Shown here one piece after another: positions 9,021 to 25,227 of a stretch of 44,323 bases of DNA. Numbering within the stretch: the first letter of the stretch is position 1; every line of letters starts with the position of its first letter. The stretch comes from Planctomycetota bacterium (GTDB lineage: Bacteria; Planctomycetota; UBA8108; UBA1146): NCBI GenBank assembly GCA_036338595.1, contig JAYZBV010000114.1, positions 1-44,323 of the forward strand, given 5' to 3'. The position numbers were made by a program, and so were the translations under genes. Below the pieces are notes generated by a model. It saw nothing but the letters and a program-made list of their open reading frames with translations, was not told where the DNA came from and searched no databases.

Positions 9021-9845
9021 ATGAAGTTGGGAGTCTGTTCCTGGTCACTGTCTCCATCCGGCCCCGAGGATCTGGTCGAGAAGGTGCAGGCGACGGGACT
9101 CGATGCGATTCAACTGGCGCTCGATCCGTTGCGCCTCGACTGGAGTGGTTCCCACGCCTTCGATGTACTCGAAGCCGCGGGCATCGAGGTACTCAGCGGC
9201 ATGATGATGATGGAAGGTGAGGACTATTCCACCTTCGAGACGATCCGCATCACCGGCGGGTTACGGCCAGACCAGAACTGGCAAGGCAACATCCGTGCTG
9301 CCGAGGAGAATGCTCGCATCGCTGCCGAAGCCGGCATCGAGTTGATCACCTTTCACGCCGGGTTCATTCCCCATGACGCTTCAGACCCTGAGCGAGCCAA
9401 GATGCTGGGGCGCTTGCGGCAGCTGTCTGCGGTGTTTCAGGAGGCGGGATGCCGTGTGGCTCTCGAAACGGGGCAGGAGTCGGCAGAGACCCTCGTCGAG
9501 GTTCTGATGGAACTGGATCAACCGTCGATCGGGGTCAATTTCGACCCGGCAAACATGATCCTCTACGGTATGGGAGATCCGATCGTCTCGCTCGATCTGC
9601 TGGCGCCCTACATCTCCCAGTTGCACATCAAGGATGCGCTTCCCTCCGATCAGCCAGGTCAGTGGGGCAGCGAGGAGCCAGCGGGTGAAGGAGCAGTCGA
9701 CTGGCACGCCTTCTTCGAGGTGCTCGATCGTCACCAGCTCGATCGCGATCTCATCATCGAACGCGAGGCGGGCGATCAACGGATCGACGATGTGATCCGT
9801 GCCCGGGAGTTGCTGGCGGTGCATCTGGGGGGAGCGAAGAGATGA
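9021..9845 (+). CDS. Sugar phosphate isomerase/epimerase (xylose-isomerase-like TIM barrel), cytoplasmic
   Basis: Metal ligands LETGQE, NFDPAN, LHIKDA, IIERE; no signal peptide. Confidence 0.88.
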   Translation: MKLGVCSWSLSPSGPEDLVEKVQATGLDAIQLALDPLRLDWSGSHAFDVLEAAGIEVLSGMMMMEGEDYSTFETIRITGGLRPDQNWQGNIRAAEENARIAAEAGIELITFHAGFIPHDASDPERAKMLGRLRQLSAVFQEAGCRVALETGQESAETLVEVLMELDQPSIGVNFDPANMILYGMGDPIVSLDLLAPYISQLHIKDALPSDQPGQWGSEEPAGEGAVDWHAFFEVLDRHQLDRDLIIEREAGDQRIDDVIRARELLAVHLGGAKR

Positions 9846-10855
9846 ACTCGATCGGTGTCGGAATCATCGGTTTTGGTTTCATGGGTCGGACCCATCTGGA
9901 GGCATACCGACGCGCAGCATCGGATGGCATCGATGCTCAGGTGCGGGAAATCTACAGCCTCGATCCACCAGACGCACCGGGAGCCGGAAATGTAGATACG
10001 GGCGCCGATTCCGCCATCGATCTGGAATCGCTGGGTATTCGATGGTCAGAAGAGATCGAGCACCTGCTGGCGGCTGACGACATCGACCTCGTCAGCATCT
10101 GTACCCCGACCGACACGCACATCGACCTGGCCATCCAGGCTCTCGAAGCGGGGAAGCATGTGCTCCTCGAGAAGCCAGTGGCCCTCAGCAGCGTCGAGGT
10201 GGAGCGATTGCAAGCCGTAGACGATGCGACCGATCGGTTGTGTATGCCGGCGATGTGCATGCGCTTCTGGCCCGGCTGGAGCTGGCTTCACGAGACGATG
10301 CGCTCGGGAAAACTGGGTGCGGTGACGAGTGCCCACTTTCAACGCATCGGCGCATCCCCGGGGTGGAGCCAGGACTTTTATCTCGACGAGACACGCTCCG
10401 GTGGCGCCTTGACCGATCTTCATGTTCATGATGCTGACTTCATCTTCGCCAGTTTCGGGATGCCGACCGAGGTCTGTACCAGCGGTACTCGCTTCCAGCT
10501 GGTCACTCAATATCGCTATCCGGATGGCCCCGCATCCGTCGTGGCTGAAGCGGCATGGTACCCCGACCCATCGTATCCCTTTCAGATGAGGTATCGTGTC
10601 GGGTTCGAGGCTGCCGTCGCTGATTTCGACATGTCGAGAACCGATTCACCGTTGATGTTGCATCGCGATGGATCGACCCAGGTGATCGATCTTCCGCAGG
10701 GAAACGGATACGAAGGTGAGGTCCGACATTTCCTGGAGGCGGTGACCGCCGGTGCCGATCGAATCGATCCGTCGCTGGCGGAAGCGAGTCAGGTCCTCAG
10801 AATCCTCGAGGCGGAGGGTGCCAGCATCGACGAGCGGAAGCCGATCACGCTCTGA
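9842..10855 (+). CDS. Gfo/Idh/MocA family NAD(P)-dependent oxidoreductase, cytoplasmic
   Basis: GIIGFGFMG Rossmann motif, ICTPTDTH, GKHVLLEKP, GGALTDLHVHD; ATGA overlap with the upstream gene. Confidence 0.9.
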   Translation: MNSIGVGIIGFGFMGRTHLEAYRRAASDGIDAQVREIYSLDPPDAPGAGNVDTGADSAIDLESLGIRWSEEIEHLLAADDIDLVSICTPTDTHIDLAIQALEAGKHVLLEKPVALSSVEVERLQAVDDATDRLCMPAMCMRFWPGWSWLHETMRSGKLGAVTSAHFQRIGASPGWSQDFYLDETRSGGALTDLHVHDADFIFASFGMPTEVCTSGTRFQLVTQYRYPDGPASVVAEAAWYPDPSYPFQMRYRVGFEAAVADFDMSRTDSPLMLHRDGSTQVIDLPQGNGYEGEVRHFLEAVTAGADRIDPSLAEASQVLRILEAEGASIDERKPITL

Positions 10856-10923: not shown

Positions 10924-12237
10924 TTATCCGCAGGGCGGGTAACTGTTGCAGTCTTCCGCCAGCTGTCCAGGAGTGGTCCCGCAGTCGGGGTAGGGAGCTG
11001 GTGGTGCTGATCCCTCGAGGAACTGGTACTGGATCACGAAGGTCGGATCCGCCACATCATAGCCACCGTCTCCGTTGGCATCGTTGGCCCCATCGCAGTC
11101 GTTGTGGGTTCCGCCGAGGAACAGGTCACTGAGCATCCAGATCGCATCGGCGACATCAGTGCGTTCATCATGGTTGGCGTCACTTCGAAGGTAGGCTGTG
11201 ACGCTGGCGGCATTCAGGGTCACGGTCCCGTCATCGGTGTCTGCTGCGATCGATCCTCCACCGACCACGACGACGTTGGTGACATTGGGGGATCCCAGTC
11301 CACCTGTCCAGGTCAACGAGGTCGACGCTCCATCGGTATCCCCGATGAGTGCCGAGGGGATCGTCGAGTAACTGGCCACGGCAACGGTTTCTGCACTGGT
11401 ATAGCTGATCGTCTCCGCTCCGACGAAGGAGTAGACGCAGCCTATGGTGAAGCCTTCGGGGTAGATGCTCGATTCAGCAAAACTGGGACCGTTGCCTCCA
11501 TCGAGTGCTGCCACCGGTCCTGTCAGTGTCACGGCTGTGGCTTCGAGCATCGCCTGGTCGTGACCGAGACCCATCGAGAACCCTTGAGTCTGGTTGGGGA
11601 AGGGAGCTCCAAGAGCGCTGTTGTCGATCTCGGAGATCTGGATGTCAGTGCTGAAGGATGCGTTTCCGTCATCCGGATTGTAGGTGCCGATGGTATCCTG
11701 TGCCGAGTAGGTGTATGCCGGCCCCGGGATGTCGATGACTTCCATCGTTCCTGAGTTCTGCGTCGGTGTCAGGGATGAACCTCCGACAACGGCCACCGTC
11801 GAGACATTGGGAGATCCCTGGTTTCCGCAGAAATCGGCAGAGTAGAGTCCAGGCTGTGCAGAAGTCGAGATGTCATAGTCTGCACTCGACATGATGTATC
11901 CAACGGTTCCCTCGGCGATGGCGTTACAGCCCGTGAAGCAGATCACGACGCCCTGGGTCCAACCATCTGTATAGATCGACGTCTCATTGAAATCGACATC
12001 ACTACTGTCCTCCTGGTTGATCCCGGAGATGGAAGCGATGCTGGAATCATGACACATGCCGAAGGACCAGCCCTGAACGGCTCCTCCGCTGCCGATATTA
12101 TCCAGGGTTGCGGTGATGTTCATCGAGCCGCCGGCGGCTGCGGAATCGCTGCCGGCACTGAAGGTCTGCGCGTGTGTCTGAGTGGCCACGGCAAGGCTCA
12201 TCAGCAGGGCAGTGGTGACAAGGATCATTCGTATCAT
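10924..12237 (-). CDS. Secreted protein with two cohesin-like beta-sandwich repeats and a C-terminal dockerin-like domain
   Basis: Signal peptide (THA-Q); internal duplication (QGWSFGMCHD/QGFSMGLGHD; GSPNVSTVAVVGG/GSPNVTNVVVVGG); C-terminal RSDANHDERTDVAD...DANGDGGYDVADP; strong RBS GGGGAGGT. Confidence 0.75.
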   Translation of the reverse strand: MIRMILVTTALLMSLAVATQTHAQTFSAGSDSAAAGGSMNITATLDNIGSGGAVQGWSFGMCHDSSIASISGINQEDSSDVDFNETSIYTDGWTQGVVICFTGCNAIAEGTVGYIMSSADYDISTSAQPGLYSADFCGNQGSPNVSTVAVVGGSSLTPTQNSGTMEVIDIPGPAYTYSAQDTIGTYNPDDGNASFSTDIQISEIDNSALGAPFPNQTQGFSMGLGHDQAMLEATAVTLTGPVAALDGGNGPSFAESSIYPEGFTIGCVYSFVGAETISYTSAETVAVASYSTIPSALIGDTDGASTSLTWTGGLGSPNVTNVVVVGGGSIAADTDDGTVTLNAASVTAYLRSDANHDERTDVADAIWMLSDLFLGGTHNDCDGANDANGDGGYDVADPTFVIQYQFLEGSAPPAPYPDCGTTPGQLAEDCNSYPPCG

Positions 12238-12422: not shown

Positions 12423-13124
12423 TTAAGGCTGGATTGTCAGGTTCCGAAACTGGAGTCGGCTGCCGTGGGATTGCAGTTCGATGGGACCTCGATCGGGCAG
12501 TGGCAACTCCCTGTTCCAGTAATTCTCGAGCGGTACCGCTTCGACGACGCGCTGGCCATTGAGATCGACCGTCACCTGCTCCCCGCGCATCTCGATTCGA
12601 AAGTGATTCCACTGACCCGGTGGATGATCGGCAGCCACGAGGGGCAGCGAGGCGCCCTGCTGGTTGTTGTAGAGCCCTCCGGAACCCTCTGGATGTTGCT
12701 CAATATCCCAGATTTGCACCTGAGGAGAGCCACGCAGATAGATGCCGCTATCGCCGCCCGGTTCGATCATCCACTCCAGCTCCAGCACGAAATCGCCAAA
12801 ATCCTCGATGGTGCAGAGGTGGGATCCATGGCCATCAAAGATCAAGGTCGCATCTTCGATGCTCCAGTGTTTCCTCATGTGCAGGTCGGCCTGAGCCTGC
12901 GCTTCCAGGAGTGGCTCTGAACTCATCTCGGCGCGCGAATAGGGGTTTCCCACCAGCCCTTGCCAACCGCTCAAGGTGTTGCCGTCAAAGAGGGGGCGAG
13001 GTTCGTTGACGGAGGCGGTGCGGGGGGATGTTTCGCTGCAGCCCTGCAGCAGAGAGATCCACAACAAGGCGAGGGCTGCGGCGATGACGAGGGCTGCGGC
13101 GATGAATCGGGGCTGGATCGACAT
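12423..13124 (-). CDS. DUF1080 (3-keto-disaccharide hydrolase family) lipoprotein
   Basis: LFDGNTLSGW, FGDFVLELEW, GDSGIYLRG, GQWNHFRI, GPIELQSHG, FRNL motifs; lipobox LLQGC; probable start MSIQP at 13124. Confidence 0.9.
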   Translation of the reverse strand: MSIQPRFIAAALVIAAALALLWISLLQGCSETSPRTASVNEPRPLFDGNTLSGWQGLVGNPYSRAEMSSEPLLEAQAQADLHMRKHWSIEDATLIFDGHGSHLCTIEDFGDFVLELEWMIEPGGDSGIYLRGSPQVQIWDIEQHPEGSGGLYNNQQGASLPLVAADHPPGQWNHFRIEMRGEQVTVDLNGQRVVEAVPLENYWNRELPLPDRGPIELQSHGSRLQFRNLTIQP

Positions 13125-13266
13125 CGGTTCTTCTCCTCGGGGAGAATATGCCACGAGCACGGCAACGGAGCCACCCTGTTCGGTCGTGGCCCCTCCCTTG
13201 CCGATGGCGTACGATCTGGACGCCGGAATCGAAGTCCATTGACGACTGAAACCCCGCGGGAGGAGC

Positions 13267-14625
13267 GTGTCCTTGTCAGAGAATGGATCGAATGGGGCCG
13301 AGGCGCCTGCACTCGATGGTGGATTGAAGGTTCGCCTATCGCTGATGATGTTTCTTCAGTACGCCATCTGGGGTGCCTGGTTACCGCTGCTGTGGGATCT
13401 GTTGATGAACGCCAAGGGATTCACTGGCTCCGAGGTGGGGAATATCTTTGCCGTCGGGGCGGTGGGAGCGATCTTCGGCCCCTTCATCGCTGGCCAGGTC
13501 GCCGATCGCTGGTTCAATACGGAAAAGTTTCTCGCCTTCAGTCATCTGCTCGGAGGAGTATTGGCGTGGCAGATGGCCTCGCTCGACGATTACAACACCT
13601 TCTTCTGGTACGCACTGATCTACGGTCTCATCTATTCGCCGACGCTGGCGTTGACCAATAGCCTCTCCTTTCATCACCTTCCCGATCGGGATCGAGATTT
13701 CGGCAAGATCCGGCTGTGGGGAACCATCGGCTGGATCGTCGCAGGAATCGGTATCGGCCAGTGGCTGCTTCACAACTACGCCGGCGGATCGTCAGATCAT
13801 GCCAAGGATCCGGAGGTCTACGCCGGCATGGCGGATGCCTTCAAACTCAGCGGGATCTGCGGCATCACCATGGGTATCTTCTGCCTGTTCGGATTGCCCA
13901 GCACTCCTCCGACCAAGTCCAAGGATGCAGACAATGCCACGGTGAAGGCTCTGGGAGAGGTCTCTCATCAGCCGCTGTTGACGCTGTTTCTCATCGCAGT
14001 GCCGGTCTCGTGTATCCACCAGTTTTACTTCGTTCACACCGCGCCTTTTCTCAACACCTTTCAGAGTGAACTGGGTGGATCCGACCTGGCCACTAGCCTC
14101 AACTCCGTATTCGGAATTGGCGGTGGCGGATTGATGACCCTCGGCCAGATGTCGGAGATCTTCGTGCTGGCGATGATTCCTGTTCTGGCGATGACGCTGA
14201 GCCGCAAGAAGTTACTGATGATCGGGTTGCTCGCCTATGCCGCACGGATGGCGATCTTCAGCTACGCGCCGATGCTGGGAGACCTGGGCATGCCCCTGGT
14301 GATCCTGGGTGTCGCACTGCACGGGTTTTGTTTCGGTTGCTTCATCTTTGTCGCCTTCATGGTCGTCGATGAAGAGTGCTCGGCGGATGTTCGCGCCACC
14401 GCCCAGAATCTGTTCAACCTGGTGATCGTTGGTCTCGGCATCATCGTCGGTAGCAAGGTGGCCAGTTCGGTGGCTGAGTGGGCGGCGGCACGTGTCTCCG
14501 AGGGAGATCCCTGGTACGCAAAGACCACGGAGATGTTCCAGGTGCCGATGGCCGCCAGCCTGGCGTGTCTGGTGCTGATGATGTTGATGTATCCCTCCCG
14601 GGGGAAGAATGAGGAGGCTCTGTGA
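13267..14625 (+). CDS. MFS nucleoside:H+ symporter-like permease (NupG/YegT family)
   Basis: [51 protein letters not shown]; about 12 TM helices. Confidence 0.9.
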
Positions 14626-15584
14626 TCGTTCCTTCCAGTCATCCGTTGCGTCGCCGCGAGTTCCTCGGCGTGCTGGCCGCTTCCACTGCCGGGGCCTTCG
14701 TCGGCCTGACCGGTTGCAATTCAGCTCCGGGTCTGTGGGCCAGTGGCCTGGTGGGGAGTGATCCTGTGAAACTGTTTGATATCTCCCTGGCGGAATGGTC
14801 GCTGCATCGATCTCTCCAGAGTGGACAGATGACCAATCTCGATTTTCCCCGCGTCACGCGCGAGGTGTATGGCATCGGGGCCGTCGAGTACGTCAACTCC
14901 TTCTTCAAGGACAAGGCCAACGACGAGAAATACCTATCGACCCTCAACCAGCGCTGTGCAGATCACGACATCAAGAATCTTCTCATCATGTGTGACGGCG
15001 AGGGACGACTGGGTGATCCTGACGAGAAAGCGCGCACCCAGGCGGTGCAGAACCATCACCGCTGGGTCGATGCGGCGAAGTTCCTCGGTTGCCATTCGAT
15101 TCGCGTCAATGCGGCCAGTGCCGGCAGTTACGACGAGCAGATGAAGTTGGCTGCGGACGGTCTGGCATCATTGACCGATTATGGTGCTTCCAGCGGGCTC
15201 AATGTGATCGTCGAGAACCATGGAGGGCTTTCATCCAACGGCGCGTGGCTTGCCGGAGTGATGAAACTCGTCGATAATCCACGCTGTGGAACGCTGCCGG
15301 ATTTCGGCAACTTCAACCTTGGAGGCGGAAAGAGTTACGACCGCTATCAGGGGGTTCAGGAGTTGATGCCGTTCGCCAAGGCGGTCAGTGCCAAGAGCCA
15401 TGTCTTTGATGAAGATGGCAACGAGACCAAGACGGACTACAGAAAGATGATGAAGATCGTGCTCGATGCAAATTACCACGGATACGTCGGTATCGAGTTC
15501 GAAGGTGGAGGATCGGAGCAGGACGGTATCCTCGCGACCAAGGCGTTGCTCGAAAAGGTCCGCGAGGAGTTCTCGGCGACCTGA
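14622..15584 (+). CDS. Tat-exported lipoprotein, sugar phosphate isomerase/epimerase TIM barrel
   Basis: RRREFL Tat motif plus LTGC lipobox; [28 protein letters not shown]. Confidence 0.88.
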
Positions 15585-15618
15585 AGCGTAAATAAACCCC
15601 TCGAAGGAGGAATCAGAG

Positions 15619-16959
15619 ATGACTGACAAGAACAAACCGAATCCGGCGAGCACGGATCGCCGAGATTTCCTCAAGGGCGCTGCAGTGGCCGCAGGTGCCA
15701 TCGCGCTCAGCGGCAACAGCCTGCTTGGATCCGAGCGAATCGGGGCTGCTCCCGGTGCCATCGCCCGTGCAGCGAGCCGTGTTCCTCTCGGCGATGACGG
15801 TCTGGTGCGTATCGGCATCATCGGAACCGGTGGTATGGGAGGGGGCCACATCGGCTCGTTCCTCCAGTTCGCCACTCGAGGCGAGGAAAAGGTCAAGATC
15901 GTGGCCGTCTGTGATGTCAATCACAAGCGCCGCGCCGTGGCCGAGAGCAGGATCAACAAGGCCCAGGGTGACGAGTGTGCGATCTACAACGATTACCACA
16001 ACCTGCTCGCACGCGATGACATTCACGGTGTTCTGATCGCCTCGCCAGAACACTGGCACGCACAGATGGCCGAAGATGCCCTGCTGGCGGGAAAAGATGT
16101 CTACCTCGAAAAACCGATGACATTGCGTTTGCCCGAGGCGCTGCGTTTGCGCCAGGTGGTACTGAGCAATCCGGACGTGTTGCTTCAGGTCGGCACCCAG
16201 AAGATCATGCTGCCGAAGTACAAGGCGGCTCAGGCGATGGTCGCAGATGGCGCCATCGGTAAACCGACCTTCAGTCAGACCTCCTACTGTCGCAACTCCC
16301 GCGACGGCGAGTGGAAGTACTACGGTATCGACCCCGACTGGAAGCCCGGTGTCAATGTCGACTGGGATCGCTGGTGTGGGCCGGCCGGGGTCCGTGACTG
16401 GAACCCGGCACTGTGCGCTCGCTGGCGCCGCTACAAGGATTTCTCGACCGGAATCGTCGGGGACTTGCTGGTGCACGAGATCACGCCTCTGATGATGGCG
16501 CTCGATCAGGGCTGGCCGACTCGTGTCGTTGCCACCGGCGGACACTACGTCGACAAGGCGATGGAAAATCACGACCAGGTCAATCTGCAGATCCAGTTCG
16601 AGAAGGGACACACCCTCATCGTGGCGGGCTCGACCTGCAACGAGATGGGACTCGAGACGATGATCCGGGGCCATCAGGGCACGATTTACCTCAACGGGGG
16701 CAACTGCAAGATGGTTCCGCAGCGCCTGTTCGCAGACGATGTCGAACCACAGGAGGTGATCTGCGAGAGTATCGGCAACGATCAGGATGCACTGAGGCGA
16801 AACTGGCTCGATTGCATCCGGACGCGTCGCCAACCCGATTCCAATGTCGACCTGGGCACCAAGGTGATCGTTGCGGTCGATCTGGCCACGCGGTCGATGT
16901 GGGAGGGGAAGGCGTTCGAGTTCGATCCCGCCTCGATGACCGCGATGAGTATCGGCTAG
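15619..16959 (+). CDS. Tat-exported Gfo/Idh/MocA oxidoreductase
   Basis: DRRDFLK Tat motif; GIIGTGGMG; ASPEHWH; YLEKPM; WRRYKDFSTGIVGDLLVH. Confidence 0.9.
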   Translation: MTDKNKPNPASTDRRDFLKGAAVAAGAIALSGNSLLGSERIGAAPGAIARAASRVPLGDDGLVRIGIIGTGGMGGGHIGSFLQFATRGEEKVKIVAVCDVNHKRRAVAESRINKAQGDECAIYNDYHNLLARDDIHGVLIASPEHWHAQMAEDALLAGKDVYLEKPMTLRLPEALRLRQVVLSNPDVLLQVGTQKIMLPKYKAAQAMVADGAIGKPTFSQTSYCRNSRDGEWKYYGIDPDWKPGVNVDWDRWCGPAGVRDWNPALCARWRRYKDFSTGIVGDLLVHEITPLMMALDQGWPTRVVATGGHYVDKAMENHDQVNLQIQFEKGHTLIVAGSTCNEMGLETMIRGHQGTIYLNGGNCKMVPQRLFADDVEPQEVICESIGNDQDALRRNWLDCIRTRRQPDSNVDLGTKVIVAVDLATRSMWEGKAFEFDPASMTAMSIG

Positions 16960-16978
16960 TCGGCTCGGGAGAATCTGA

Positions 16979-17824
16979 ATGTTGTACAGGGGCGCCCTGC
17001 CAGCGATGGGAACTCGTTTCGAGATCGTCGCTGGCGGGGATGACCCGATCCTGATCCAGGCTGCAGTGGAGGAGGCGCTCGAAGAGGTCTCCATCGGTCA
17101 TCACCTCTGGAATGCTTTTTCCCGCCAGAGCCTGCTGGCTCGCATCCACGAATCCGGTGCGACCCGGGCAATCCCCGTCGATGCCATCACGCTCGACCTT
17201 TTGTGCCACTGTGTTCGCCTTCATCAACAGACCGGTGGCCACTTCGACCCTGCCATCGGAACCGATCTCGATCGAGGCGCCTCTCGTCGTGGTCTCGACG
17301 CCGTCGAGATCGATAGTGCGGCGGCCACCGTGCGCCTGCTGGATCCTCGTTGTCGGCTCGATCTGGGCGGCATCGCCAAGGGATACGCCTGTGATCTGGC
17401 CGCAGAGGTGCTGCGGGAAGCTGGCATCGAATGCGCCTTGATCCACGGCGGCACCAGCAGCGTGGTCGCCATCGGAGCCCCTCCAGGCCGCGAGGACTGG
17501 GCGATCGAGATCGTCAGCGGCTCTGGACGGCACGTTTTTCTGCGTGACGAATCGCTGGCAGTGAGTGCCCCGTCCGGAGGCAAGGGGGATGGCCACATCG
17601 TCGATCCTGCCGATGGCCATCGTGTGCCCGCGGAGGGGCCGGGCGTGATGGTGAGGGGACCGCATGCCACCGACTGCGATGCCTGGGCCACTGCATTGAC
17701 CGTTGCTGGCTTTCAGAGCGGTATCGAGCAGAATCTATCCGATCGATACGAGGCCAGTCCTGTCGAGGCGACAGGGGACGCACGCCTCTTGTCACTCGTC
17801 AGCAAGCAGCATGGTTCTCGGTAG
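16979..17824 (+). CDS. apbE: FAD:protein FMN transferase (ApbE family), no signal peptide
   Basis: AMGT, TGGHFDPAIG, LDLGGIAKGYACD, GHIVDPADG, DAWATAL motifs; in-frame TGA immediately before the ATG. Confidence 0.9.
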   Translation: MLYRGALPAMGTRFEIVAGGDDPILIQAAVEEALEEVSIGHHLWNAFSRQSLLARIHESGATRAIPVDAITLDLLCHCVRLHQQTGGHFDPAIGTDLDRGASRRGLDAVEIDSAAATVRLLDPRCRLDLGGIAKGYACDLAAEVLREAGIECALIHGGTSSVVAIGAPPGREDWAIEIVSGSGRHVFLRDESLAVSAPSGGKGDGHIVDPADGHRVPAEGPGVMVRGPHATDCDAWATALTVAGFQSGIEQNLSDRYEASPVEATGDARLLSLVSKQHGSR

Positions 17825-17852
17825 CGCAAAACTCGGCTGCCTTGGAAGAGGG

Positions 17853-19085
17853 ATGATGGAAACGGACCGTAGAGAATTTTTGAAACAGGGAGCGGGAACT
17901 CTGGCTGGAATCTCGCTGCTCCCGGGGCTGGACGCACTGGGCTCGGTGATTCCGGAGGGGTTGCCGGTCGCCATCATCGGCATGGGGCGTCAGGGACGAG
18001 CGATCGCTGCCGAGTTGCAAAAACTGGGCGCAACCATCGCTGCGATCTGCGATCTGGATGAGCCGCGCCTGAGGAGTGGCCAGCGCCGAGTCCCGGATGC
18101 GACCAGTTACTCCGATGCATCGCAACTGCTGGCGAAGGAAGCCTCCGTGGTGGCGGTCTTCATCGCAACTCCTACCCATCTGCACCGAGAAATTGTCGAG
18201 GCTACTCTGGCCGCCGGAAAGCATGTCTACTGCGAAGCACCGCTGGCTCACACCCTGGAAGATGCCCGTGCCATCGCGGCAGCGGCACGATCCAGTAGCC
18301 AGTTATTTCAGGCAGGATTGCTCGGCCGCTCCAATCCGGTCTATTCACTGGCACGTTCTTTCTACCGTACCGAGGCGTTTTTGAAACTGGTCTCGATGCG
18401 AGCGCAGTGTGCACGCAAGACATCGTGGCGACAGGCCGCTTCCACAGCCGAGCGACAGGCAAGACTCGACTGGCGCCTCGACCCGTCGATCTCACTGGGT
18501 CTGCCTGGCGAGTGGGGCACGCATCAGTTCGATGTCATCCACTGGTTCACCGGCCAGTATCCGGTGCGAATCTCCGGCAAGGGGGGCGTGTTCGTCTGGG
18601 AAGATGGACGAAAGGTGGCGGATACCGTCAATCTGGTACTGGAGTTTCCGAGGGGACAGTGCCTCGAATACCAGGCGACGCTGGGCAATTCCTACGGCGG
18701 ACGCTACGAGGTGCTGCACGGTGTCAATTCAGCCTTCAAACTGGCATGGAGTCACGGCTGGATGTTCAAGGAAGCGGATGCCGCCACCCAGGGCTGGGAA
18801 GTGTACGCCAACAGGCAGCGTTTCTTCAATGATGAGGGGATCACTCTCATCGCGGACGCGACCAAACTCGCCAGCCAGAACAAACTGAAGGACGGCGTCG
18901 GCCTGCCCAATGATTCGCTCCACTATGGCATCGCCGACTTCCTGCGTAGTTGTGGTCAAGGGGATCGCATCCAGTGTGGTGCCAGCGAGGGTTTGAGGGC
19001 CACTGCGGTGGGCATCGCAGCTCAGCGCGCCATCGTCGAGGGAGGGGTCGTCGAGATCTCCCCTGATGATCTGAAAGAGGCCTGA
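17853..19085 (+). CDS. Tat-exported Gfo/Idh/MocA family protein with EKP->EAP substitution
   Basis: DRREFLK Tat motif after ATG 17853/17856; IIGMGRQG; ATPTHLH; GKHVYCEAPL. Confidence 0.85.
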   Translation: MMETDRREFLKQGAGTLAGISLLPGLDALGSVIPEGLPVAIIGMGRQGRAIAAELQKLGATIAAICDLDEPRLRSGQRRVPDATSYSDASQLLAKEASVVAVFIATPTHLHREIVEATLAAGKHVYCEAPLAHTLEDARAIAAAARSSSQLFQAGLLGRSNPVYSLARSFYRTEAFLKLVSMRAQCARKTSWRQAASTAERQARLDWRLDPSISLGLPGEWGTHQFDVIHWFTGQYPVRISGKGGVFVWEDGRKVADTVNLVLEFPRGQCLEYQATLGNSYGGRYEVLHGVNSAFKLAWSHGWMFKEADAATQGWEVYANRQRFFNDEGITLIADATKLASQNKLKDGVGLPNDSLHYGIADFLRSCGQGDRIQCGASEGLRATAVGIAAQRAIVEGGVVEISPDDLKEA

Positions 19086-19086
19086 T

Positions 19087-19899
19087 TTGATGGTCGGTAG
19101 CAACATTGTGGGCCACGGGCTTCGCACCCAACCGATCGGGATTCGCATCGGATTGACCGCACTGGTGCTGGTGTTGCTGGGCGGATTGGCGGCGAGCGCT
19201 GCTCACCTCGTGAATCACTACGCGAATCGCGACGAGCGACCGGAGTTGACTCTCGATGACATCAAGGGTGCGTACCACGGCATCAACACTCCTTCGCTGC
19301 TCAACTCGGCACTCGAGCGAGGGCATCCGGAGCAACTTCCTGCTGCCGAGAAACAGATCCTGCTCGTCTGGCTCGCCGGCACCCGGATCGTCGAGGATTA
19401 CGACAGCCTCGATCTGGAGATCCCGCCTGCCGAGATCATCGAAAGCCGCTGCCTGGAGTGTCATACACGTCAGGCGGGAGCAGAGGCGGGCACTCCCAGG
19501 CCACCCCTCGAGTACTTTGACGACATCAAATCGATCGCCTTTTCGCGCGAGATTCGCGCCACTCCCGACAGCGTTCTGGCGATGTCGACCCACGCTCACG
19601 CCCTCAGTATGTCGATTCAGGGCATCTTGGTGGCGGCTCTGGCGTTGTTGACGCGCTGGCCTGTTCGCTCCATCTCGCTGCTGGTGGCGGTGATGGGACT
19701 CGGATTGCTGGGCGATATAGGGGGTTGGTGGATGGCCCGTTTCAGTCCATCCTGGGCTCTGTGCATCGTGATCTCGGGGGCCGGGTACAGCGTCAGCCAG
19801 GCGATCTTGCTGCTAATGGTCGTGACGGATCTCTGGTGGCCCAGCAGAGCCGAAGCGAGACCGATCTCTAAAGAACAGCCTGACAAGGAGGAACGATGA
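19087..19899 (+). CDS. Membrane protein with periplasmic c-type heme domain and about 4 TM helices
   Basis: N-terminal TM, CLECH heme motif, STHAHALSM at the start of three further TM helices. Confidence 0.75.
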   Translation: MMVGSNIVGHGLRTQPIGIRIGLTALVLVLLGGLAASAAHLVNHYANRDERPELTLDDIKGAYHGINTPSLLNSALERGHPEQLPAAEKQILLVWLAGTRIVEDYDSLDLEIPPAEIIESRCLECHTRQAGAEAGTPRPPLEYFDDIKSIAFSREIRATPDSVLAMSTHAHALSMSIQGILVAALALLTRWPVRSISLLVAVMGLGLLGDIGGWWMARFSPSWALCIVISGAGYSVSQAILLLMVVTDLWWPSRAEARPISKEQPDKEER

Positions 19900-21161
19900 G
19901 CGAGCAGGATCCTGGTGCGACCCGCAGAGACTTCTTGAAGGGAGCTGCCGCTGCTTCTGCAGCGACCCTGCTGACAACCATGCCCGGTTCGGTTCATGCC
20001 GATGGTTCGGATATCATCCGCGTCGGGCTGATCGGCTGTGGTGGCCGTGGTTCAGGTGCTGCCAACAATTGCGTGAGTTCCTCCCCCGGTGTCAAGATCA
20101 CCGCCATGGCAGATCTGTTCCGGGACCGTCTCGACTCGAGTCGCAATAACCTCAAGAAACTCGGCGACGGCTTCGATGTTCCCGAGGAGCGCTGCTTCGT
20201 CGGCTTCGATGCCTACCAGCAACTGCTCGCCTCCGATGTCGATATGGTGATCCTCGCCACACCCCCTGGCTTCCGTCCGATCCACTTCGAGGCCGCTGTC
20301 GCTGCTGGCAAGAATGTCTTCATGGAGAAACCGGTCGCTACCGATGGACCCGGGATTCGCAAGGTGCTGGAAGCCGCCAAGGTTGCCAAGCACAAGGGGC
20401 TCGCCGTCGTTGCGGGTACCCAGCGCCGCCATCAGAAGGGCTACATCGAGACGATGCAGCAGATTCACGATGGGGCCATCGGAGATCTGGTCGGAGCGCA
20501 GGTGTACTGGAATCAGGGTGGACTGTGGGTGGCTCGCAAGACGCCCCAGATGTCGGACATGGAGTGGCAGGTCAGGAACTGGCTCTACTTCGCCTGGGCC
20601 AGTGGAGACCACATCGTCGAACAACACATCCACAACATCGATGTCATGAACTGGGCCTTCGGAGGCCCGCCGGAAAAGGCCAATGCGATGGGGGGGCGTC
20701 AGGTTCGCACCGGAGCTGAATACGGGCACATCTTCGACCACTTTGCGGTCGAGTATGTTTATCCCGGTGGCGTCCGGACCCTCAGTGAATGCCGACAGAT
20801 CGACGGCTGCTGGAACCGGGTCTCCGAGAAGATCATCGGGACCAAGGGAGTGGCGAACCCATCGGGCCGGATCACCGGTGAGACCAACTGGAGTGCCCCC
20901 GGTGGTGGAAAAAATCCATATGTTCAGGAACACGCGGATCTGATCGCAAGCATCCGCGCCAACGATCCCCTCAACGAGGCGGAGCGTGTCGCGATGAGCA
21001 CGCTGACCGCCATCATGGGGCGCATGAGTGCCTACACCGGCAAGGAGGTCACTCTCGACTTCGCCCTCAACTCGCAGTTGAATCTTCTGCCGGAGAGGTG
21101 GGAGTTTGGAGATCTTGCCATGCCCGAAGTGGCGGTTCCCGGACGTACGGCACTGGTCTAG
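19896..21161 (+). CDS. Tat-exported Gfo/Idh/MocA oxidoreductase
   Basis: TRRDFLK Tat motif, VHA cleavage site; GLIGCGGRG; ATPPGFRP; FMEKPV; RNWLYF..SGDHIVEQHIHNID. Confidence 0.92.
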   Translation: MSEQDPGATRRDFLKGAAAASAATLLTTMPGSVHADGSDIIRVGLIGCGGRGSGAANNCVSSSPGVKITAMADLFRDRLDSSRNNLKKLGDGFDVPEERCFVGFDAYQQLLASDVDMVILATPPGFRPIHFEAAVAAGKNVFMEKPVATDGPGIRKVLEAAKVAKHKGLAVVAGTQRRHQKGYIETMQQIHDGAIGDLVGAQVYWNQGGLWVARKTPQMSDMEWQVRNWLYFAWASGDHIVEQHIHNIDVMNWAFGGPPEKANAMGGRQVRTGAEYGHIFDHFAVEYVYPGGVRTLSECRQIDGCWNRVSEKIIGTKGVANPSGRITGETNWSAPGGGKNPYVQEHADLIASIRANDPLNEAERVAMSTLTAIMGRMSAYTGKEVTLDFALNSQLNLLPERWEFGDLAMPEVAVPGRTALV

Positions 21162-21175
21162 GCAGGAGTGCCGAG

Positions 21176-22087
21176 ATGGACCGCAGGACATTTATCACGG
21201 CCACTTCGCTGGCGGTGATCGGGAGTTCGCTGGGAAAGGCGATGGAGATGTCGATTCCAGGGTTTCATGGTCGATCACCCAGGCTCAAGAAATCTCTCAA
21301 GATCGGCATGGCCAACGTGGGAGACACGTTGCTGGAGAAGTTCCAGATTCTCAAGGATCTGGGTTTCGATGGCATCGAACTCGATTCTCCGTCAAATCTC
21401 GATTGGCGAGAGGTGCTGCGAGCGAAGGCGGAGACTGGTCTGGAGATCCCGGGAGTGGTCTGTTCCACACACTGGGGAAAGCCACTATCAGCGGCTGACG
21501 AGGCGACCCGGCGTGCCGGGATCGAGGGAGTCGAGACCGCCTTGCGAGACTGTCGTCTCTTCGGTGGTACCACCGTCCTGCTGGTCCCGGGAACCTGTAC
21601 CAATGGAGCGGCGACCTACGAAGATGCATGGAAACGTTCGACCGAGGCGATCAAAGAACTGATTCCCCTCGCCGCAGAGTTGAAGGTTCGCATCGCCTTC
21701 GAGAATGTCTGGAACGATTTCATCACCGACGCGGATGAAGCGGTCAAGTATGTCGATCAGTTCGAGAGTCCGTGGGTCGGGTGGTATTTCGATACCGGCA
21801 ACATCGTGCGCTATGGCAGTCCTCCGGAATGGGTTCGCAAACTCGGCAGTCGAACCATCAAACTCGATATCAAGGATTACTCTCGCACATTGATGGAGAA
21901 GGACGGTCCCTGGGCAGGGTTCAAGTGCAAGATCGGCGATCCGGAATCCTCGGTCGAGTGGGCCGAGACGATGAAGGCTCTCGACGAGGTCGGTTACCGA
22001 GGATGGGGCTCTGCAGAGGTCTCTGGAGGCGGCAAGGAGCGTCTTGCAGAGATTTCTCGACGCATGGATGAGGTTTCTTCTCGCTAG
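21176..22087 (+). CDS. Tat-exported sugar phosphate isomerase/epimerase TIM barrel
   Basis: MDRRTFI Tat motif after AGGAG RBS; GFDGIEL, FENVWN, YFDTGN, IKDY, SAEV. Confidence 0.88.
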   Translation: MDRRTFITATSLAVIGSSLGKAMEMSIPGFHGRSPRLKKSLKIGMANVGDTLLEKFQILKDLGFDGIELDSPSNLDWREVLRAKAETGLEIPGVVCSTHWGKPLSAADEATRRAGIEGVETALRDCRLFGGTTVLLVPGTCTNGAATYEDAWKRSTEAIKELIPLAAELKVRIAFENVWNDFITDADEAVKYVDQFESPWVGWYFDTGNIVRYGSPPEWVRKLGSRTIKLDIKDYSRTLMEKDGPWAGFKCKIGDPESSVEWAETMKALDEVGYRGWGSAEVSGGGKERLAEISRRMDEVSSR

Positions 22088-22164
22088 TCGCTCGGGGCCT
22101 CATGCCCTATCATCGAAGGTGTTCTACAGATAACAACTTTCCCCACAGAACCGGAGGGTTCTCG

Positions 22165-25100
22165 ATGCGTATGACTTCCATGGTGACAAGGTTGGCTTGC
22201 CTGCTGACCTGCTGTTCAGCACTATCAGCGCAGGTCACCAGTGAATCCTGGATCAACTGGGAAAGCCCACCGGTACATCCGCTGGAACTGGTTTCGGGCA
22301 GTGACCTGTTGCTGGCGACCAACACGGCAGATTCCCACCTGGAAATCTACAACATCAGCTCCGGTGTTCCGGAGCCGTTGCTGTCGGTGCCGGTGGGGCT
22401 GGATCCTGTATCGGTGCGAGCTCGTAATGCGACCGAGGCGTGGGTGGTGAATCGGATCTCCGACACGATCAGCATCGTCGATCTGCAAAATGGCTATGTT
22501 CGATGGACATTGATGACAGCAGATGAACCCGCGGATGTGATCTTTGCAGGTACTCCGGAACGGGCTTATGTTTCCTGCTCGGGGACCGATGAGATCATGG
22601 TTTACGATCCAGCCGATCTGGCAGCATCGCCCGAGATCATCCAGTTGATCGGTGAAGAACCTCGGGCACTTGCAAAAAGCCCCGACGGATCGACCGTCTA
22701 CTGCGCCATCTTTGAATCCGGCAATGGCACCACCGTGCTCGGCGGAGGATTTGACGGTGGAATCAATGTCATCGCATTCCCTCCCAACGTTGTCAGCGAT
22801 CCTGCGGGTCCTTATGGCGGCGTCAATCCACCGCCCAATGCCAATGGCGACTTTGAGCCACCACTGAACCCCAGCATAGGTACACCTCCACCCGTGGCAC
22901 TGATCGTGAAGAAGATCGACCAGGATGTGTGGGTCGATGACAATGGAAGCGACTGGGGAGATCTAGTCAGTGGGCCACAGGCAGACCTTTCCGGTCGCCA
23001 GGTCGGCTGGGATCTGGCAGATCATGATGTCGCGGTCATCGATACCACCGACAACTCGGTCTCATACATCCAGTCCCTGATGAACATCTGCATGGCGATC
23101 GGTGTTCGTCCGACCGATGGAGCCATCTCGGTGGTCGGAACCGAGGCCCACAATCACATCCGCTACGAACACAATCTCAACGGGCACTTCATCGATGTGC
23201 TGCATGCGATGATCACCCCGGGAGGCGCGGCCAGCGCACAGATCGAGGATCTCAATCCTCATCTACCCGCCGGTGGTGTCAGTGTTCCCCCCGATCAGCA
23301 GGTTCTGAGCATCGGAGATCCGCGAGCCATCGTCTGGAATGCCGCGGGTACCGAGGCTTTTGTCGCCGGTAAGGGATCCGGAAATGTCGTCAGGCTGCAG
23401 GCCGACGGAACCCGGGATCTTGTTGCGGACCCCATCGATGTGGGCGCGGGAGCGACCGGTCTCGCCCTCGATGAATCGAGGGGGAAACTCTATGTGCTGG
23501 AGCACTTCGATGCGTCGGTGGCTTCCATCGATATACAGACCGGCACCATCAGTGGTCGAGACACATTTCACGATCCGACCGGTGAAGTGGTACGCGCGGG
23601 CCGAAAGTTCCTCTACGACACACACCTCACCTCCGGAATGGGCCAGGTCTCCTGTGCTTCTTGCCACGTCGATGCCAGGACCGACCGCCTGGCATGGGAT
23701 CTGGGAGATCCTGGCGGGGAGGAAGAGCCCTTTGTCGATGTTTGCAACATGGGTCTACCGCTTCCGGGAGTACCTCCGTGTGATGATTTCCATCCGATGA
23801 AGGGACCGATGTTGACGCAGACATTGCAGGACATCATCGGCAAGGAACCTCATCACTGGCGTGGAGATAAATTTGGTATCGAGGCCTTTGGTGGTGCATT
23901 CATGTCCATCAATGGAGATGATCTTCCTCTCGGCGGCAGTTCGATGCAGGAGTTCGAGGCGTACCTCGCCAGCATCTACTTTCCTCCCAATCCATTCCGC
24001 AGCATCCGAAATGAACTGCCCACGGCATTGCCACTCGATGGGCATTACACGACCGGTCGCTTCGGGTCTGAAGGTGAATCACTGGGAACAGGAAACGCAG
24101 TGACCGGGCTGGATCTGTACCGCAATGATGGCCTCGATGGAGGCCTGCAGTGTGTGACCTGCCATGCGTTGCCGATCGGAATCGGGCCCAACTCGGAGTT
24201 CAGTACCGGGTTTGTCATGGAAACGATTCCGGACGGTCCGATGGGGGAAAAACACCACGGCATGGTCAGTGTCGATGGCTCTGCCCAGCGGAACATCAAG
24301 ATTCCCCATTTGCGAAACGTCTACAAGAGGACCGGCTTCAACACGACTCAACTGCTCAACACTTCCGGATTTGGATTCCTTCACGACGGGTCGGTGGATT
24401 CCGTCGAGCGTTTCATCAGTGAACCTGCTTTCTCGGTACTCAATGATCAGCAGATTGCAGATCTGACCGCCTTCATGCTCGCGTTCTCTGGATCCGACCT
24501 ACCGGAGGGAAGCAATCAGACACCGTTCGAACCTCTCGGGACGCCCAGTCAGGATTCGCACGCTGCGGTGGGGATGCAGATCACCCTCGACGAGACCAAC
24601 AGGGATGACCCCGATGTGCTCGCCGATGCGCAGATCATCCTCGAGGAAGCGAGCCTCGGCAGGATCGGCGTGATCGCCAAGGCATGGCAAGGCGGCTTCC
24701 TTCGTGGATGGGTACTGGTGGGTGCCGGCACCGGAGTATTCCAGTCCGACATCCTGACCGAAGGCACCACCTTCACCGAACTTCGCAACTCCGCAGTAGC
24801 GGGTGCGGAAGTGACCTTCACCGTGGTACCAACGGGATCGGCACTCCGGATGGGCATCGATCGTGATCTCGACGGCCACTTTGATGGGGACGAACGCCTG
24901 GCATGTTCCGATCCTGCGGACCCACTGTCTCAACCTGGATCCTGCTCTGGCGTCTTCTTCGTCCGTGGCGATGGAAATGGAGACGGTGCCCTCGATATCT
25001 CGGATGCGATCTCGACGCTGCAACTTCTCTTCGGAGGAGGCACTTCCCTCACCAGCTGTGAGGATGGTCACGACAGTAACGACGATGGCAGCATCGATGT

Positions 25101-25227
25101 TGCGGATCCCATCACAGTACTGTCATATCTCTTCTCGGGTGGCGCAGAATTGCCGGCCCCGGGAGCGACGTGTGGTGAGGATCTGACCGGAGACACCTTG
25201 CAGTGCACCGAGACGGTATGCCCCTGA
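22165..25227 (+). CDS. Secreted YVTN/YncE-like beta-propeller + di-heme cytochrome c peroxidase-like domain + dockerin-like tail
   Basis: Signal peptide (LSA-Q); VPVGLDPVSV and WVVNRISDTISIVD propeller blades; CASCH (23653) and CVTCH (24151); PHLRN and GFLHDGS; C-terminal RGDGNGDGALDISD. Confidence 0.85.
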   Translation: MRMTSMVTRLACLLTCCSALSAQVTSESWINWESPPVHPLELVSGSDLLLATNTADSHLEIYNISSGVPEPLLSVPVGLDPVSVRARNATEAWVVNRISDTISIVDLQNGYVRWTLMTADEPADVIFAGTPERAYVSCSGTDEIMVYDPADLAASPEIIQLIGEEPRALAKSPDGSTVYCAIFESGNGTTVLGGGFDGGINVIAFPPNVVSDPAGPYGGVNPPPNANGDFEPPLNPSIGTPPPVALIVKKIDQDVWVDDNGSDWGDLVSGPQADLSGRQVGWDLADHDVAVIDTTDNSVSYIQSLMNICMAIGVRPTDGAISVVGTEAHNHIRYEHNLNGHFIDVLHAMITPGGAASAQIEDLNPHLPAGGVSVPPDQQVLSIGDPRAIVWNAAGTEAFVAGKGSGNVVRLQADGTRDLVADPIDVGAGATGLALDESRGKLYVLEHFDASVASIDIQTGTISGRDTFHDPTGEVVRAGRKFLYDTHLTSGMGQVSCASCHVDARTDRLAWDLGDPGGEEEPFVDVCNMGLPLPGVPPCDDFHPMKGPMLTQTLQDIIGKEPHHWRGDKFGIEAFGGAFMSINGDDLPLGGSSMQEFEAYLASIYFPPNPFRSIRNELPTALPLDGHYTTGRFGSEGESLGTGNAVTGLDLYRNDGLDGGLQCVTCHALPIGIGPNSEFSTGFVMETIPDGPMGEKHHGMVSVDGSAQRNIKIPHLRNVYKRTGFNTTQLLNTSGFGFLHDGSVDSVERFISEPAFSVLNDQQIADLTAFMLAFSGSDLPEGSNQTPFEPLGTPSQDSHAAVGMQITLDETNRDDPDVLADAQIILEEASLGRIGVIAKAWQGGFLRGWVLVGAGTGVFQSDILTEGTTFTELRNSAVAGAEVTFTVVPTGSALRMGIDRDLDGHFDGDERLACSDPADPLSQPGSCSGVFFVRGDGNGDGALDISDAISTLQLLFGGGTSLTSCEDGHDSNDDGSIDVADPITVLSYLFSGGAELPAPGATCGEDLTGDTLQCTETVCP

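Follow-up and report, generated by a model that had tools for sequence, protein, structure and literature searches.

The contig JAYZBV010000114.1 of a Planctomycetota bacterium (assembly GCA_036338595.1), analysed over its positions 1 to 44,323 and hereafter called the window, carries a cluster in which oxidoreductases of the Gfo/Idh/MocA family (Gfo), an ApbE flavin transferase and a membrane cytochrome c lie among genes for triosephosphate isomerase-type (TIM) barrels, a DUF1080 protein and a permease of the major facilitator superfamily (MFS). The original prediction had read nine genes between positions 12,423 and 22,087 as a single locus for the degradation of 3-keto-glycosides, from which electrons would pass to the membrane. 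The nine genes were found in the place, order and orientation it described, and are as tightly packed as it had said, neighbouring genes on the + strand overlapping by 4 bp at the closest and standing 34 bp apart at the widest. The five twin-arginine motifs it quoted are likewise present, and are not due to chance, because they are kept in relatives (Gfo1 58/62, Gfo2 70/70, Gfo3 21/22, TIM1 32/35, TIM2 17/17); that ApbE lacks a signal peptide was a point it did not make. The source genome, which is 88.3% complete, encodes TatC of the twin-arginine translocation (Tat) pathway, a cytochrome c assembly protein and a heme-copper oxidase.

The conserved four-gene core

The conserved unit, kept together by many planctomycetes, consists of the genes Gfo1-ApbE-Gfo2-cytochrome (PF27139), which in the window are arranged as follows.

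15619..16959, + strand: Gfo1, a dehydrogenase with a Tat motif and an intact catalytic set
16979..17824, + strand: ApbE, flavin transferase (PF02424, 120.5 bits against a cut-off of 25.6), without signal peptide
17853..19085, + strand: Gfo2, with a Tat motif and the Gfo fold, lacking the lysine of the Glu-Lys-Pro (EKP) motif; start corrected to the ATG at 17853 from a TTG at 17703
18753..18905, + strand: inserted loop of Gfo2, residues 301-351, with the codon of Thr337 at 18861-18863
19087..19899, + strand: membrane cytochrome c (PF27139), 270 aa, with one CxxCH

Synteny was assessed around homologues of the cytochrome in species-representative genomes, using the best 80 of 151 loci, of which 11 were too short upstream and 69 were informative. 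The four genes are contiguous in this order in 62 of the 69; two further loci hold all four with an insertion, two lack an adjacent Gfo1 and three have the cytochrome alone. Where Gfo1 or all three partners are missing from the locus, Gfo1 is found elsewhere in the genome (5/5), as is Gfo2 in the genomes with an isolated cytochrome (3/3). A second check, anchored on the other genes in one sample of 301 Planctomycetota genomes, recovered the Gfo2 loop in 35 of them (27 close, 8 distant), all 35 with a Gfo1 orthologue and 32 with an ApbE within ~10 kb, the other three being broken at contig ends. All 24 close cytochrome orthologues of this sample directly adjoin Gfo2, and 24 of the 27 genomes of the main clade have the cytochrome gene immediately after Gfo2. 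In distant families the order is rearranged to Gfo2-Gfo1-ApbE (L144-L147), with the genes still together. Because the genomes are related, these counts do not represent independent events. The original prediction had tied its reading to the conservation of ApbE and the cytochrome with the Gfo genes, and such conservation is what was observed, both in the contiguous loci and in the cytochromes that adjoin Gfo2; since ApbE and the cytochrome are conserved with the Gfo genes, it is reasonable to suppose that electrons are transferred to the membrane.

The close relatives of the locus carry Planctomycetota labels. One locus (L034) is titled as a Bacillota metagenome-assembled genome, with cytochrome, Gfo3 and TIM2 sequences 86-98% identical to those of the window; the other close loci are planctomycete-labelled or unlabelled, and the title is probably a mislabel. 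In a plasmid collection only distant Gfo proteins were found, at 27% identity or less among the 15 matches listed of 514.

The proteins of the core

In Gfo/Idh/MocA dehydrogenases the EKP lysine and the D-x-x-x-H motif have a catalytic role. Gfo1 has EKP in 63/63 relatives, and its best match in the PDB is 8TDF/8TDH (E 1.6e-19). For AL3, the Asp and His of the second motif have been named and the binding pocket described as Q161, R192, W195, D248, H252 and Y349 (Nasseri preprint, bioRxiv 2024.03.25.586180). Once an offset of 29 along the alignment is allowed for, Q194, R225, W232, D282 and H286 of Gfo1, each kept in 63/63, align with AL3 Q161, R192, W195, D248 and H252, Y349 falling outside the aligned stretch. 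Judged by these residues, Gfo1 is likely a Tat-exported glycoside 3-dehydrogenase.

ApbE matched 12 solved ApbE sequences. The Ser-His-Asp catalytic triad described for such enzymes (PMC12052999) is kept when aligned on the T. pallidum enzyme, S196 in 64/65 relatives, H206 in 65/65 and residue 234 as Asp in 51 and Glu in 14 of 65, while F47, aligned on T. pallidum residue 55 at the flavin-stacking position, is Phe in 65/65. At none of 64 loci does the cassette ApbE have a hydrophobic leader, one further locus lacking a recognisable motif, and in 55/64 the distance from the Gfo1 stop to the first conserved ApbE motif is 20 codons or fewer. Enzymes of this family commonly, though not always, have a lipoprotein signal at the N-terminus; the cassette ApbE would be cytoplasmic, and would transfer flavin mononucleotide (FMN) to a protein in an Mg-dependent reaction. 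A quick tree was built from 75 planctomycete ApbE domains, among them 22 of the 65 cassette sequences; these form a clade of their own (22/22 rows; Shimodaira-Hasegawa-like approximate likelihood ratio test, SH-aLRT, 99), whose neighbour is the ApbE of the rearranged loci (87). The majority of other types of ApbE neighbourhood also occupy their own branch. Three genomes of three families (L149-L151) encode ApbE and the twin-arginine Gfo2 in one reading frame with ApbE in front, and the same fusion is seen in four representatives of 50% clusters (652-717 aa), some of them from the same lineages. An internal start within the fusions was considered and rejected, the codon before the twin-arginine motif being GTC in two and GTG in one, with no stop in any.

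Gfo2, whose model matched only Gfo-family structures in a fold search, retains the glycine-rich nucleotide-binding loop and the Asp that follows it (72/72). The EKP lysine is absent from all 72 relatives, where Ala, Thr, Gly, Ser or Met takes its place, and equally from 34/34 distant representatives and 80/80 of another clade. The D-x-x-x-H motif has become E-x-x-x-H/Q (Glu for Asp in 72/72, His in 58/72), and of the places matching the AL3 pocket four hold K, W, E and H/Q, with no fixed Gln. By these residues, Gfo2 is probably not a dehydrogenase. Its inserted loop has a mean identity to 71 relatives of 88%, against 59% for the rest of the protein; in the AlphaFold2 monomer the predicted local distance difference test (pLDDT) is below 50 over residues 312-349, as expected if the segment folds on a partner or cofactor. 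A survey of 144 representatives carrying the loop gave 116 aligned rows at position 337, with Thr in 80 and Ser in 28 (T/S in 32/34 full-length sequences), and this is the sole position of the flexible loop to be so restricted. The local sequence is T-L-I-A-D-A-T, with A-[DNG]-A-[TS]-K in relatives, and in one enzyme examined elsewhere the Asp of the canonical ApbE target motif could be replaced with little effect (PMC12052999). In five distant sister Gfo proteins, encoded beside other ApbE genes, the same loop holds [SA]-G-x-T with an invariant Thr, which two hhalign profile alignments place on Thr337. Gfo2 is therefore treated here as a candidate flavin carrier and Thr337 as the candidate FMN site. 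Thr331 and Thr312 were considered as attachment sites and rejected, being T in 22 and 23 of ~120-130 rows and not kept in distant homologues, including the ApbE fusions.

The further lysine-less clade lies between ThuA-like and YceI-like genes in 80 neighbourhoods on contigs, many of them short (L184-L263, e.g. L185:6825-10097). It keeps T/S in the loop in 74/74 matched sequences, and among 120 rows its source labels include one each of Verrucomicrobiota, Ca. Binatia and Ca. Acidoferrum. One Gfo2, P0249, is extended at its C-terminus by a stretch that resembles, by eye, the ThuA-like neighbour.

The cytochrome gave no match in the older Pfam release used for the profile search, and in newer annotation is PF27139 (Aq_1264_TM), as are 117 of 120 listed homologues (Atlas score 0.98). 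It comprises an N-terminal helix, a soluble domain with one CxxCH and three C-terminal helices with His169-x-His171; the model has a pLDDT of 91.8 and four long helices, for which a fold search returned generic helical bundles only (best Z 8.8), with no Foldseek match at E <= 0.001. Among relatives, CxxCH is found in 80/80 and [ST]HxH in 79/80, and 23/23 distant homologues keep both His169 and His171, four of them without CxxCH. Heme binding, of a c heme through CxxCH and a b heme through the membrane histidines, is supported by this pattern. Short PF27139 homologues without CxxCH but with H-x-H directly follow fusions of FMN_bind and ApbE (L175:8852-11159, L177:8837-11660, L313:3911-6200); others lie beside ApbE in L356, L357 and L364, and similar matches adjoin ApbE in eight of the sampled genomes (G088, G138, G157, G174, G189, G204, G261 and G108). 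The short forms may serve a flavinylation system as its b-type cytochrome and, because they adjoin FMN_bind-ApbE fusions, the family is linked to flavinylation a second time. A complex prediction for Gfo1 and Gfo2 with cytochrome residues 40-190 scored 0.00 in two runs, and counts neither way.

Other planctomycete ApbE loci (n=40, raw counts, ~5 kb) contain a Gfo gene in 17 cases, DoxX in 4 and a multiheme cytochrome or cytochrome b561 in 4. ApbE-DoxX-Gfo neighbourhoods occur at L321:9530-13999 and L351:1815-6049, and a Gfo-multiheme cytochrome-cytochrome b561-ApbE order at L319:2500-9919 and L345:2608-7354. The Gfo proteins of both kinds belong to the broad subfamily of Gfo2, with inserts of their own in the same loop.

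A proposed electron route and its rivals

We propose that the core is a membrane-linked periplasmic sugar dehydrogenase in which a flavin-tagged Gfo2 relays electrons to the cytochrome, a reading for which we see the chances as even; every chemical step of the scheme, with flavinylation, heme reduction and the sugar substrate at this locus, is one that we infer from the sequences. The four core proteins very probably work together. It is fairly likely that Gfo1 and Gfo2 form a complex and leave the cytoplasm through Tat already folded, with nicotinamide adenine dinucleotide (NAD) bound, and slightly more probable than the reverse that cytoplasmic ApbE attaches FMN to Thr337 of Gfo2 before export. 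Gfo1 would then act on a glycoside or sugar, with C3 the most likely site of oxidation, and the NADH that it binds would be re-oxidised by the flavin on the Gfo2 loop, which would reach the partner's active site; here the scales are level. The flavin would take the hydride because NADH needs a two-electron acceptor before a heme. Evenly poised, too, is the last step, in which the cytochrome would accept single electrons from the flavin at its heme c and deliver them to the respiratory chain, perhaps by way of a b heme bound by His169/His171. The satellite DUF1080 and TIM-barrel proteins would cleave and hydrate keto-glycosides, and the MFS permease would import the products for a signal-less pair, Gfo0 and TIM0. 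AL3/BT3 is described as exported with bound NAD and as stalling in the reduced state without a keto-sugar re-oxidant, cytochromes being named as possible partners, and in AL3 a loop of the C-terminal domain blocks the active site of the partner monomer (bioRxiv 2024.03.25.586180). The blocking loop could serve as a precedent for the reach of the Gfo2 loop, homology of the two loops not being implied. In its fullest form the proposal is of a dead Gfo paralogue turned covalent flavin carrier, tagged by ApbE at a non-canonical Thr, exported by Tat with an NAD-bound partner and bridging NADH to a membrane cytochrome, as one of a wider set of ApbE-Gfo systems with interchangeable membrane partners (PF27139, DoxX, multiheme cytochrome with cytochrome b); this we hold to be possible, at somewhat less than an even chance.

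A number of observations weigh against this proposal. Three of the 27 close Gfo2 genomes have no cytochrome, one of them at a contig end; eight distant Gfo1-Gfo2-ApbE trios have no adjacent cytochrome, seven of them giving no PF27139 match; and most distant cytochrome homologues that bear heme c sit among unrelated genes (19 loci). The ThuA-Gfo2-YceI clade has neither ApbE (0/80) nor cytochrome (0/80) in its neighbourhoods. Two genomes of one genus have a close Gfo1 (52%) with no Gfo2 found (L314:11632-13185, L315:1776-3464). As to the attachment site, the canonical motif D-x-x-[ST]-G-A-[ST] is absent from the 15 proteins scanned (nine of the locus, TIM0, Gfo0 and four of a second ApbE locus, on contig C73 of the source genome), and because the restriction to T/S is as strong at positions 276 and 280, which lie in the folded sheet, the conservation of 337 by itself proves nothing. 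The sister motif rests on five sequences, two of them nearly identical; its hhalign match to Thr337 has low local confidence (2-3 and 4-5 of 9), and MAFFT places the sister Thr on Thr331 instead. Gfo1 scores only 101.7 bits against the BT2158 family NF058561 of NCBIfam, for which the cut-off is 750 (Gfo2 74.2, Gfo3 38.9), and no Gfo of the locus reaches the BT2159 cut-off either; for this reason none is filed in that family, and they are regarded only as working like it. The L314 and L315 genomes are natural controls for Gfo1 acting alone.

Some of the same observations would suit a different arrangement, in which Gfo1 and Gfo2 form a self-recycling transhydrogenase like AL3 or Zymomonas glucose-fructose oxidoreductase, with Gfo2 structural or regulatory, its loop an interface, and ApbE modifying another protein or none. 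The absence of a canonical ApbE motif from Gfo2 and the persistence of the loop without a neighbouring ApbE in 80/80 distant-clade loci would be expected on this account, but it leaves unexplained the ApbE-Gfo2 fusions, the dedicated ApbE clade and the invariable adjacency of cytochrome and Gfo2 (24/24), and no FMN_bind protein (PF04205) that might serve as another target was matched in the 88%-complete source genome; we regard it as unlikely. Slightly less probable still is that Gfo2 is flavinylated but hands its electrons to oxygen, to a diffusible carrier or to a quinone-linked protein whose gene lies elsewhere, the cytochrome being optional, lineage-specific or in another role. To this the eight distant and three close trios without adjacent cytochrome lend weight, as do the neighbourhoods with DoxX or with multiheme cytochrome and cytochrome b561; yet in the main clade the cytochrome stands directly after Gfo2 in all but the three genomes already mentioned, and interchangeable membrane partners are what one would expect of an electron exit.

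With a single c-type heme as the path, the reduction of NAD by quinol is uphill, and this general consideration speaks against a reverse flow, in which cytochrome and flavin would supply reductant and Gfo1 would reduce keto-sugars or other carbonyls in the periplasm; so do the catabolic character of the neighbours (DUF1080, TIM barrels, importer) and the heme-copper oxidase of the genome. That AL3/BT3 is reversible in vitro, with a 54:46 equilibrium (bioRxiv 2024.03.25.586180), and that many ApbE systems export electrons (PMC8238504) are in its favour, and we consider it very improbable. Finally, ApbE could be a pyrophosphatase of flavin adenine dinucleotide (FAD), or a flavin chaperone giving non-covalent FMN to the complex with no covalent tag. 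One ApbE/Ftp class does hydrolyse FAD (PMC4767422), and the lack of the canonical motif fits; against this, the residue by which the classes are told apart is an aromatic one in this ApbE (Phe47 in 65/65) as in the FAD-binding class, the residue named in that source being Tyr and not Phe, and either class will transfer FMN if given a protein substrate (PMC4767422), so that we think this, too, quite improbable.

The proposed relay of electrons from Gfo1 through a flavinylated Gfo2 joins parts of known kinds, ApbE electron relays and 3-keto-glycoside dehydrogenases, in an undescribed way. It is like the BT2156-BT2159 and AL1-AL4 clusters (PMC8121099; bioRxiv 10.1101/2024.03.25.586180) in its Tat Gfo with AL3-type residues, DUF1080 lipoprotein, TIM barrels and second, signal-less Gfo, whereas those clusters as described contain no ApbE, lysine-less Gfo or cytochrome, and 3-ketoglucose is the presumed means by which their bound NAD is recycled. 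The DUF1080 and TIM-barrel folds are both in the window; similarity to AL3-type structures is distant, at E ~1e-19 and far below the NCBIfam cut-offs. LacA, of the LacABC system, is a glucose-methanol-choline (GMC) flavoprotein, whereas the catalytic subunits here are NAD-type Gfo proteins; no GMC protein is in the locus, and PF05199, the GMC C-terminal domain, was not found in the source genome (88% complete). BT2158 has been contrasted with the cytochrome c-dependent LacABC of Caulobacter and ThuAB of rhizobia, with which the present module would share periplasmic oxidation of glycosides to the 3-keto form, an exit of electrons via cytochrome c and adjacent DUF1080/TIM genes (PMC8121099); by analogy, the module most likely works like these glucoside 3-dehydrogenases.

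In extracytosolic ApbE systems (NqrC/RnfG, MsrQ-, PepSY- and DUF4405-linked; PMC8238504, PMC11334425, PMC12052999) an exported redox protein is likewise accompanied by its own ApbE and by a small membrane cytochrome whose histidines are conserved, but here the proposed client has a Gfo fold with a non-canonical site, ApbE would be cytoplasmic and the cytochrome is PF27139. The 2021 survey of such systems retained only clusters in which ApbE or its target domains have a signal peptide (PMC8238504). The terms 'Gfo' and 'MocA' are absent from the main texts of PMC8238504 and PMC11334425, the supplementary tables of which may list such neighbourhoods. A signal-less ApbE that modifies a cytoplasmic target is known in Klebsiella, and one fused ahead of its target in the trypanosomatid fumarate reductase (PMC12052999). 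The present ApbE is comparable in being signal-less, apparently serving one enzyme and in some lineages fused to its N-terminus, but those fumarate reductases are cytoplasmic or glycosomal, whereas the proposed target here has a twin-arginine export motif. A literature search that covered few subscription papers and no supplements brought up neither an account of this cassette nor any paper that connects ApbE with Gfo proteins or describes PF27139.

The papers on 3-keto-glycosides call it an open question by what route Gfo enzymes exported through Tat re-oxidise their bound NAD where no free NAD is available (PMC8121099; bioRxiv 2024.03.25.586180), and the module would reduce this question to one ApbE, one threonine and one cytochrome. 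If the proposal is true, the periplasm would house an NAD-based sugar dehydrogenase that feeds respiration, and ApbE would have gained a new class of client, flavinylated before Tat export and at a non-canonical site; PF27139 would gain a cytochrome function; and planctomycetes, 35 of the 301 sampled genomes having the Gfo2 loop, would be able to draw respiratory electrons from sugars before import.

Satellite genes and other neighbours

Around the core lie the following satellite genes.

9021..9845, + strand: TIM0, xylose-isomerase-like TIM barrel (PF01261), without signal peptide or twin-arginine motif
9842..10855, + strand: Gfo0, Gfo/Idh/MocA protein (PF01408), without signal peptide or twin-arginine motif
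12423..13160, - strand: DUF1080 protein of the 3-keto-glycoside lyase-hydratase family (PF06439, 145.5 bits against a cut-off of 26.8)
13267..14625, + strand: MFS permease of the nucleoside:H+ symporter family (PF03825, 276.7 bits)
14622..15584, + strand: TIM1, TIM barrel with a Tat motif (PF01261)
19896..21161, + strand: Gfo3, Gfo/Idh/MocA protein of another subfamily (PF01408 and TAT signal)
21176..22087, + strand: TIM2, TIM barrel of sugar epimerase type with a Tat motif (PF01261); start corrected to the ATG at 21176, behind AGGAG

In 39 collinear loci of at least 19 kb, BLAST found MFS in 27, TIM1 and TIM0 in 23 each, DUF1080 and Gfo0 in 20 each, Gfo3 in 15 and TIM2 in 12, and no sugar genes at all in 10. 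The TIM-barrel, DUF1080 and MFS genes thus come and go, and are outside the core. Of the earlier interpretation, the exit of electrons to the membrane remains reasonable, and the notion of one 3-keto-glycoside locus holds less well, given these variable genes, the failure of every Gfo to reach the BT2158 or BT2159 cut-off and the fact that one of the three Gfo proteins is probably no dehydrogenase.

The DUF1080 protein has a lipobox-like LQGC and matches BT2157-type structures such as 8TDA weakly. TIM1 matches PDB 4OVX, whose title says only xylose isomerase domain TIM barrel, at E 4.7e-114; from its sequence it is a possible Tat lipoprotein and a candidate lyase/hydratase. The PDB matches of TIM2 include UlaE (E 9.6e-15) and a 3-keto-D-glucoside 4-epimerase (E 3.4e-5), and neither barrel matched an AL1- or BT1-titled structure at E <= 0.001. 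Gfo0 is probably cytoplasmic, lacking any export signal; the TIM0/Gfo0 pair (9021-10855), which travels with the locus, fell outside the range of the original prediction and was missed by it.

Scans of the locus for promoters and terminators stayed at chance level. In two metatranscriptomes (word shares 0.07-0.08) contigs of relatives cover much of the locus and none lies over 17160-18247; they speak neither for transcription nor for its absence. Between TIM0/Gfo0 and the DUF1080 gene, a 437-aa secreted protein (10924-12237, - strand) has no Pfam match and, by eye, a dockerin-like tail. A 1041-aa secreted protein (22102-25227, + strand), 14 bp after TIM2, has a YncE-like propeller, a dockerin-like tail, two CxxCH motifs and a weak match to cytochrome c peroxidase (CCP)/MauG.

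Gfo3 has a paralogue at G000:C73:60481-61797, beside the second ApbE of the source genome. This ApbE (L001:6370-11798, equivalent to G000:C73:56369-61797) has a lipoprotein-like leader and precedes the Tat-motif paralogue, the unit being divergent from a protein of formylglycine-generating enzyme (FGE)-sulfatase fold and a multiheme cytochrome c. Such an FGE-ApbE-Gfo unit is present in 7 of the 40 other ApbE loci, and adjoins the four-gene core in L057, L061, L081, L090 and L166.

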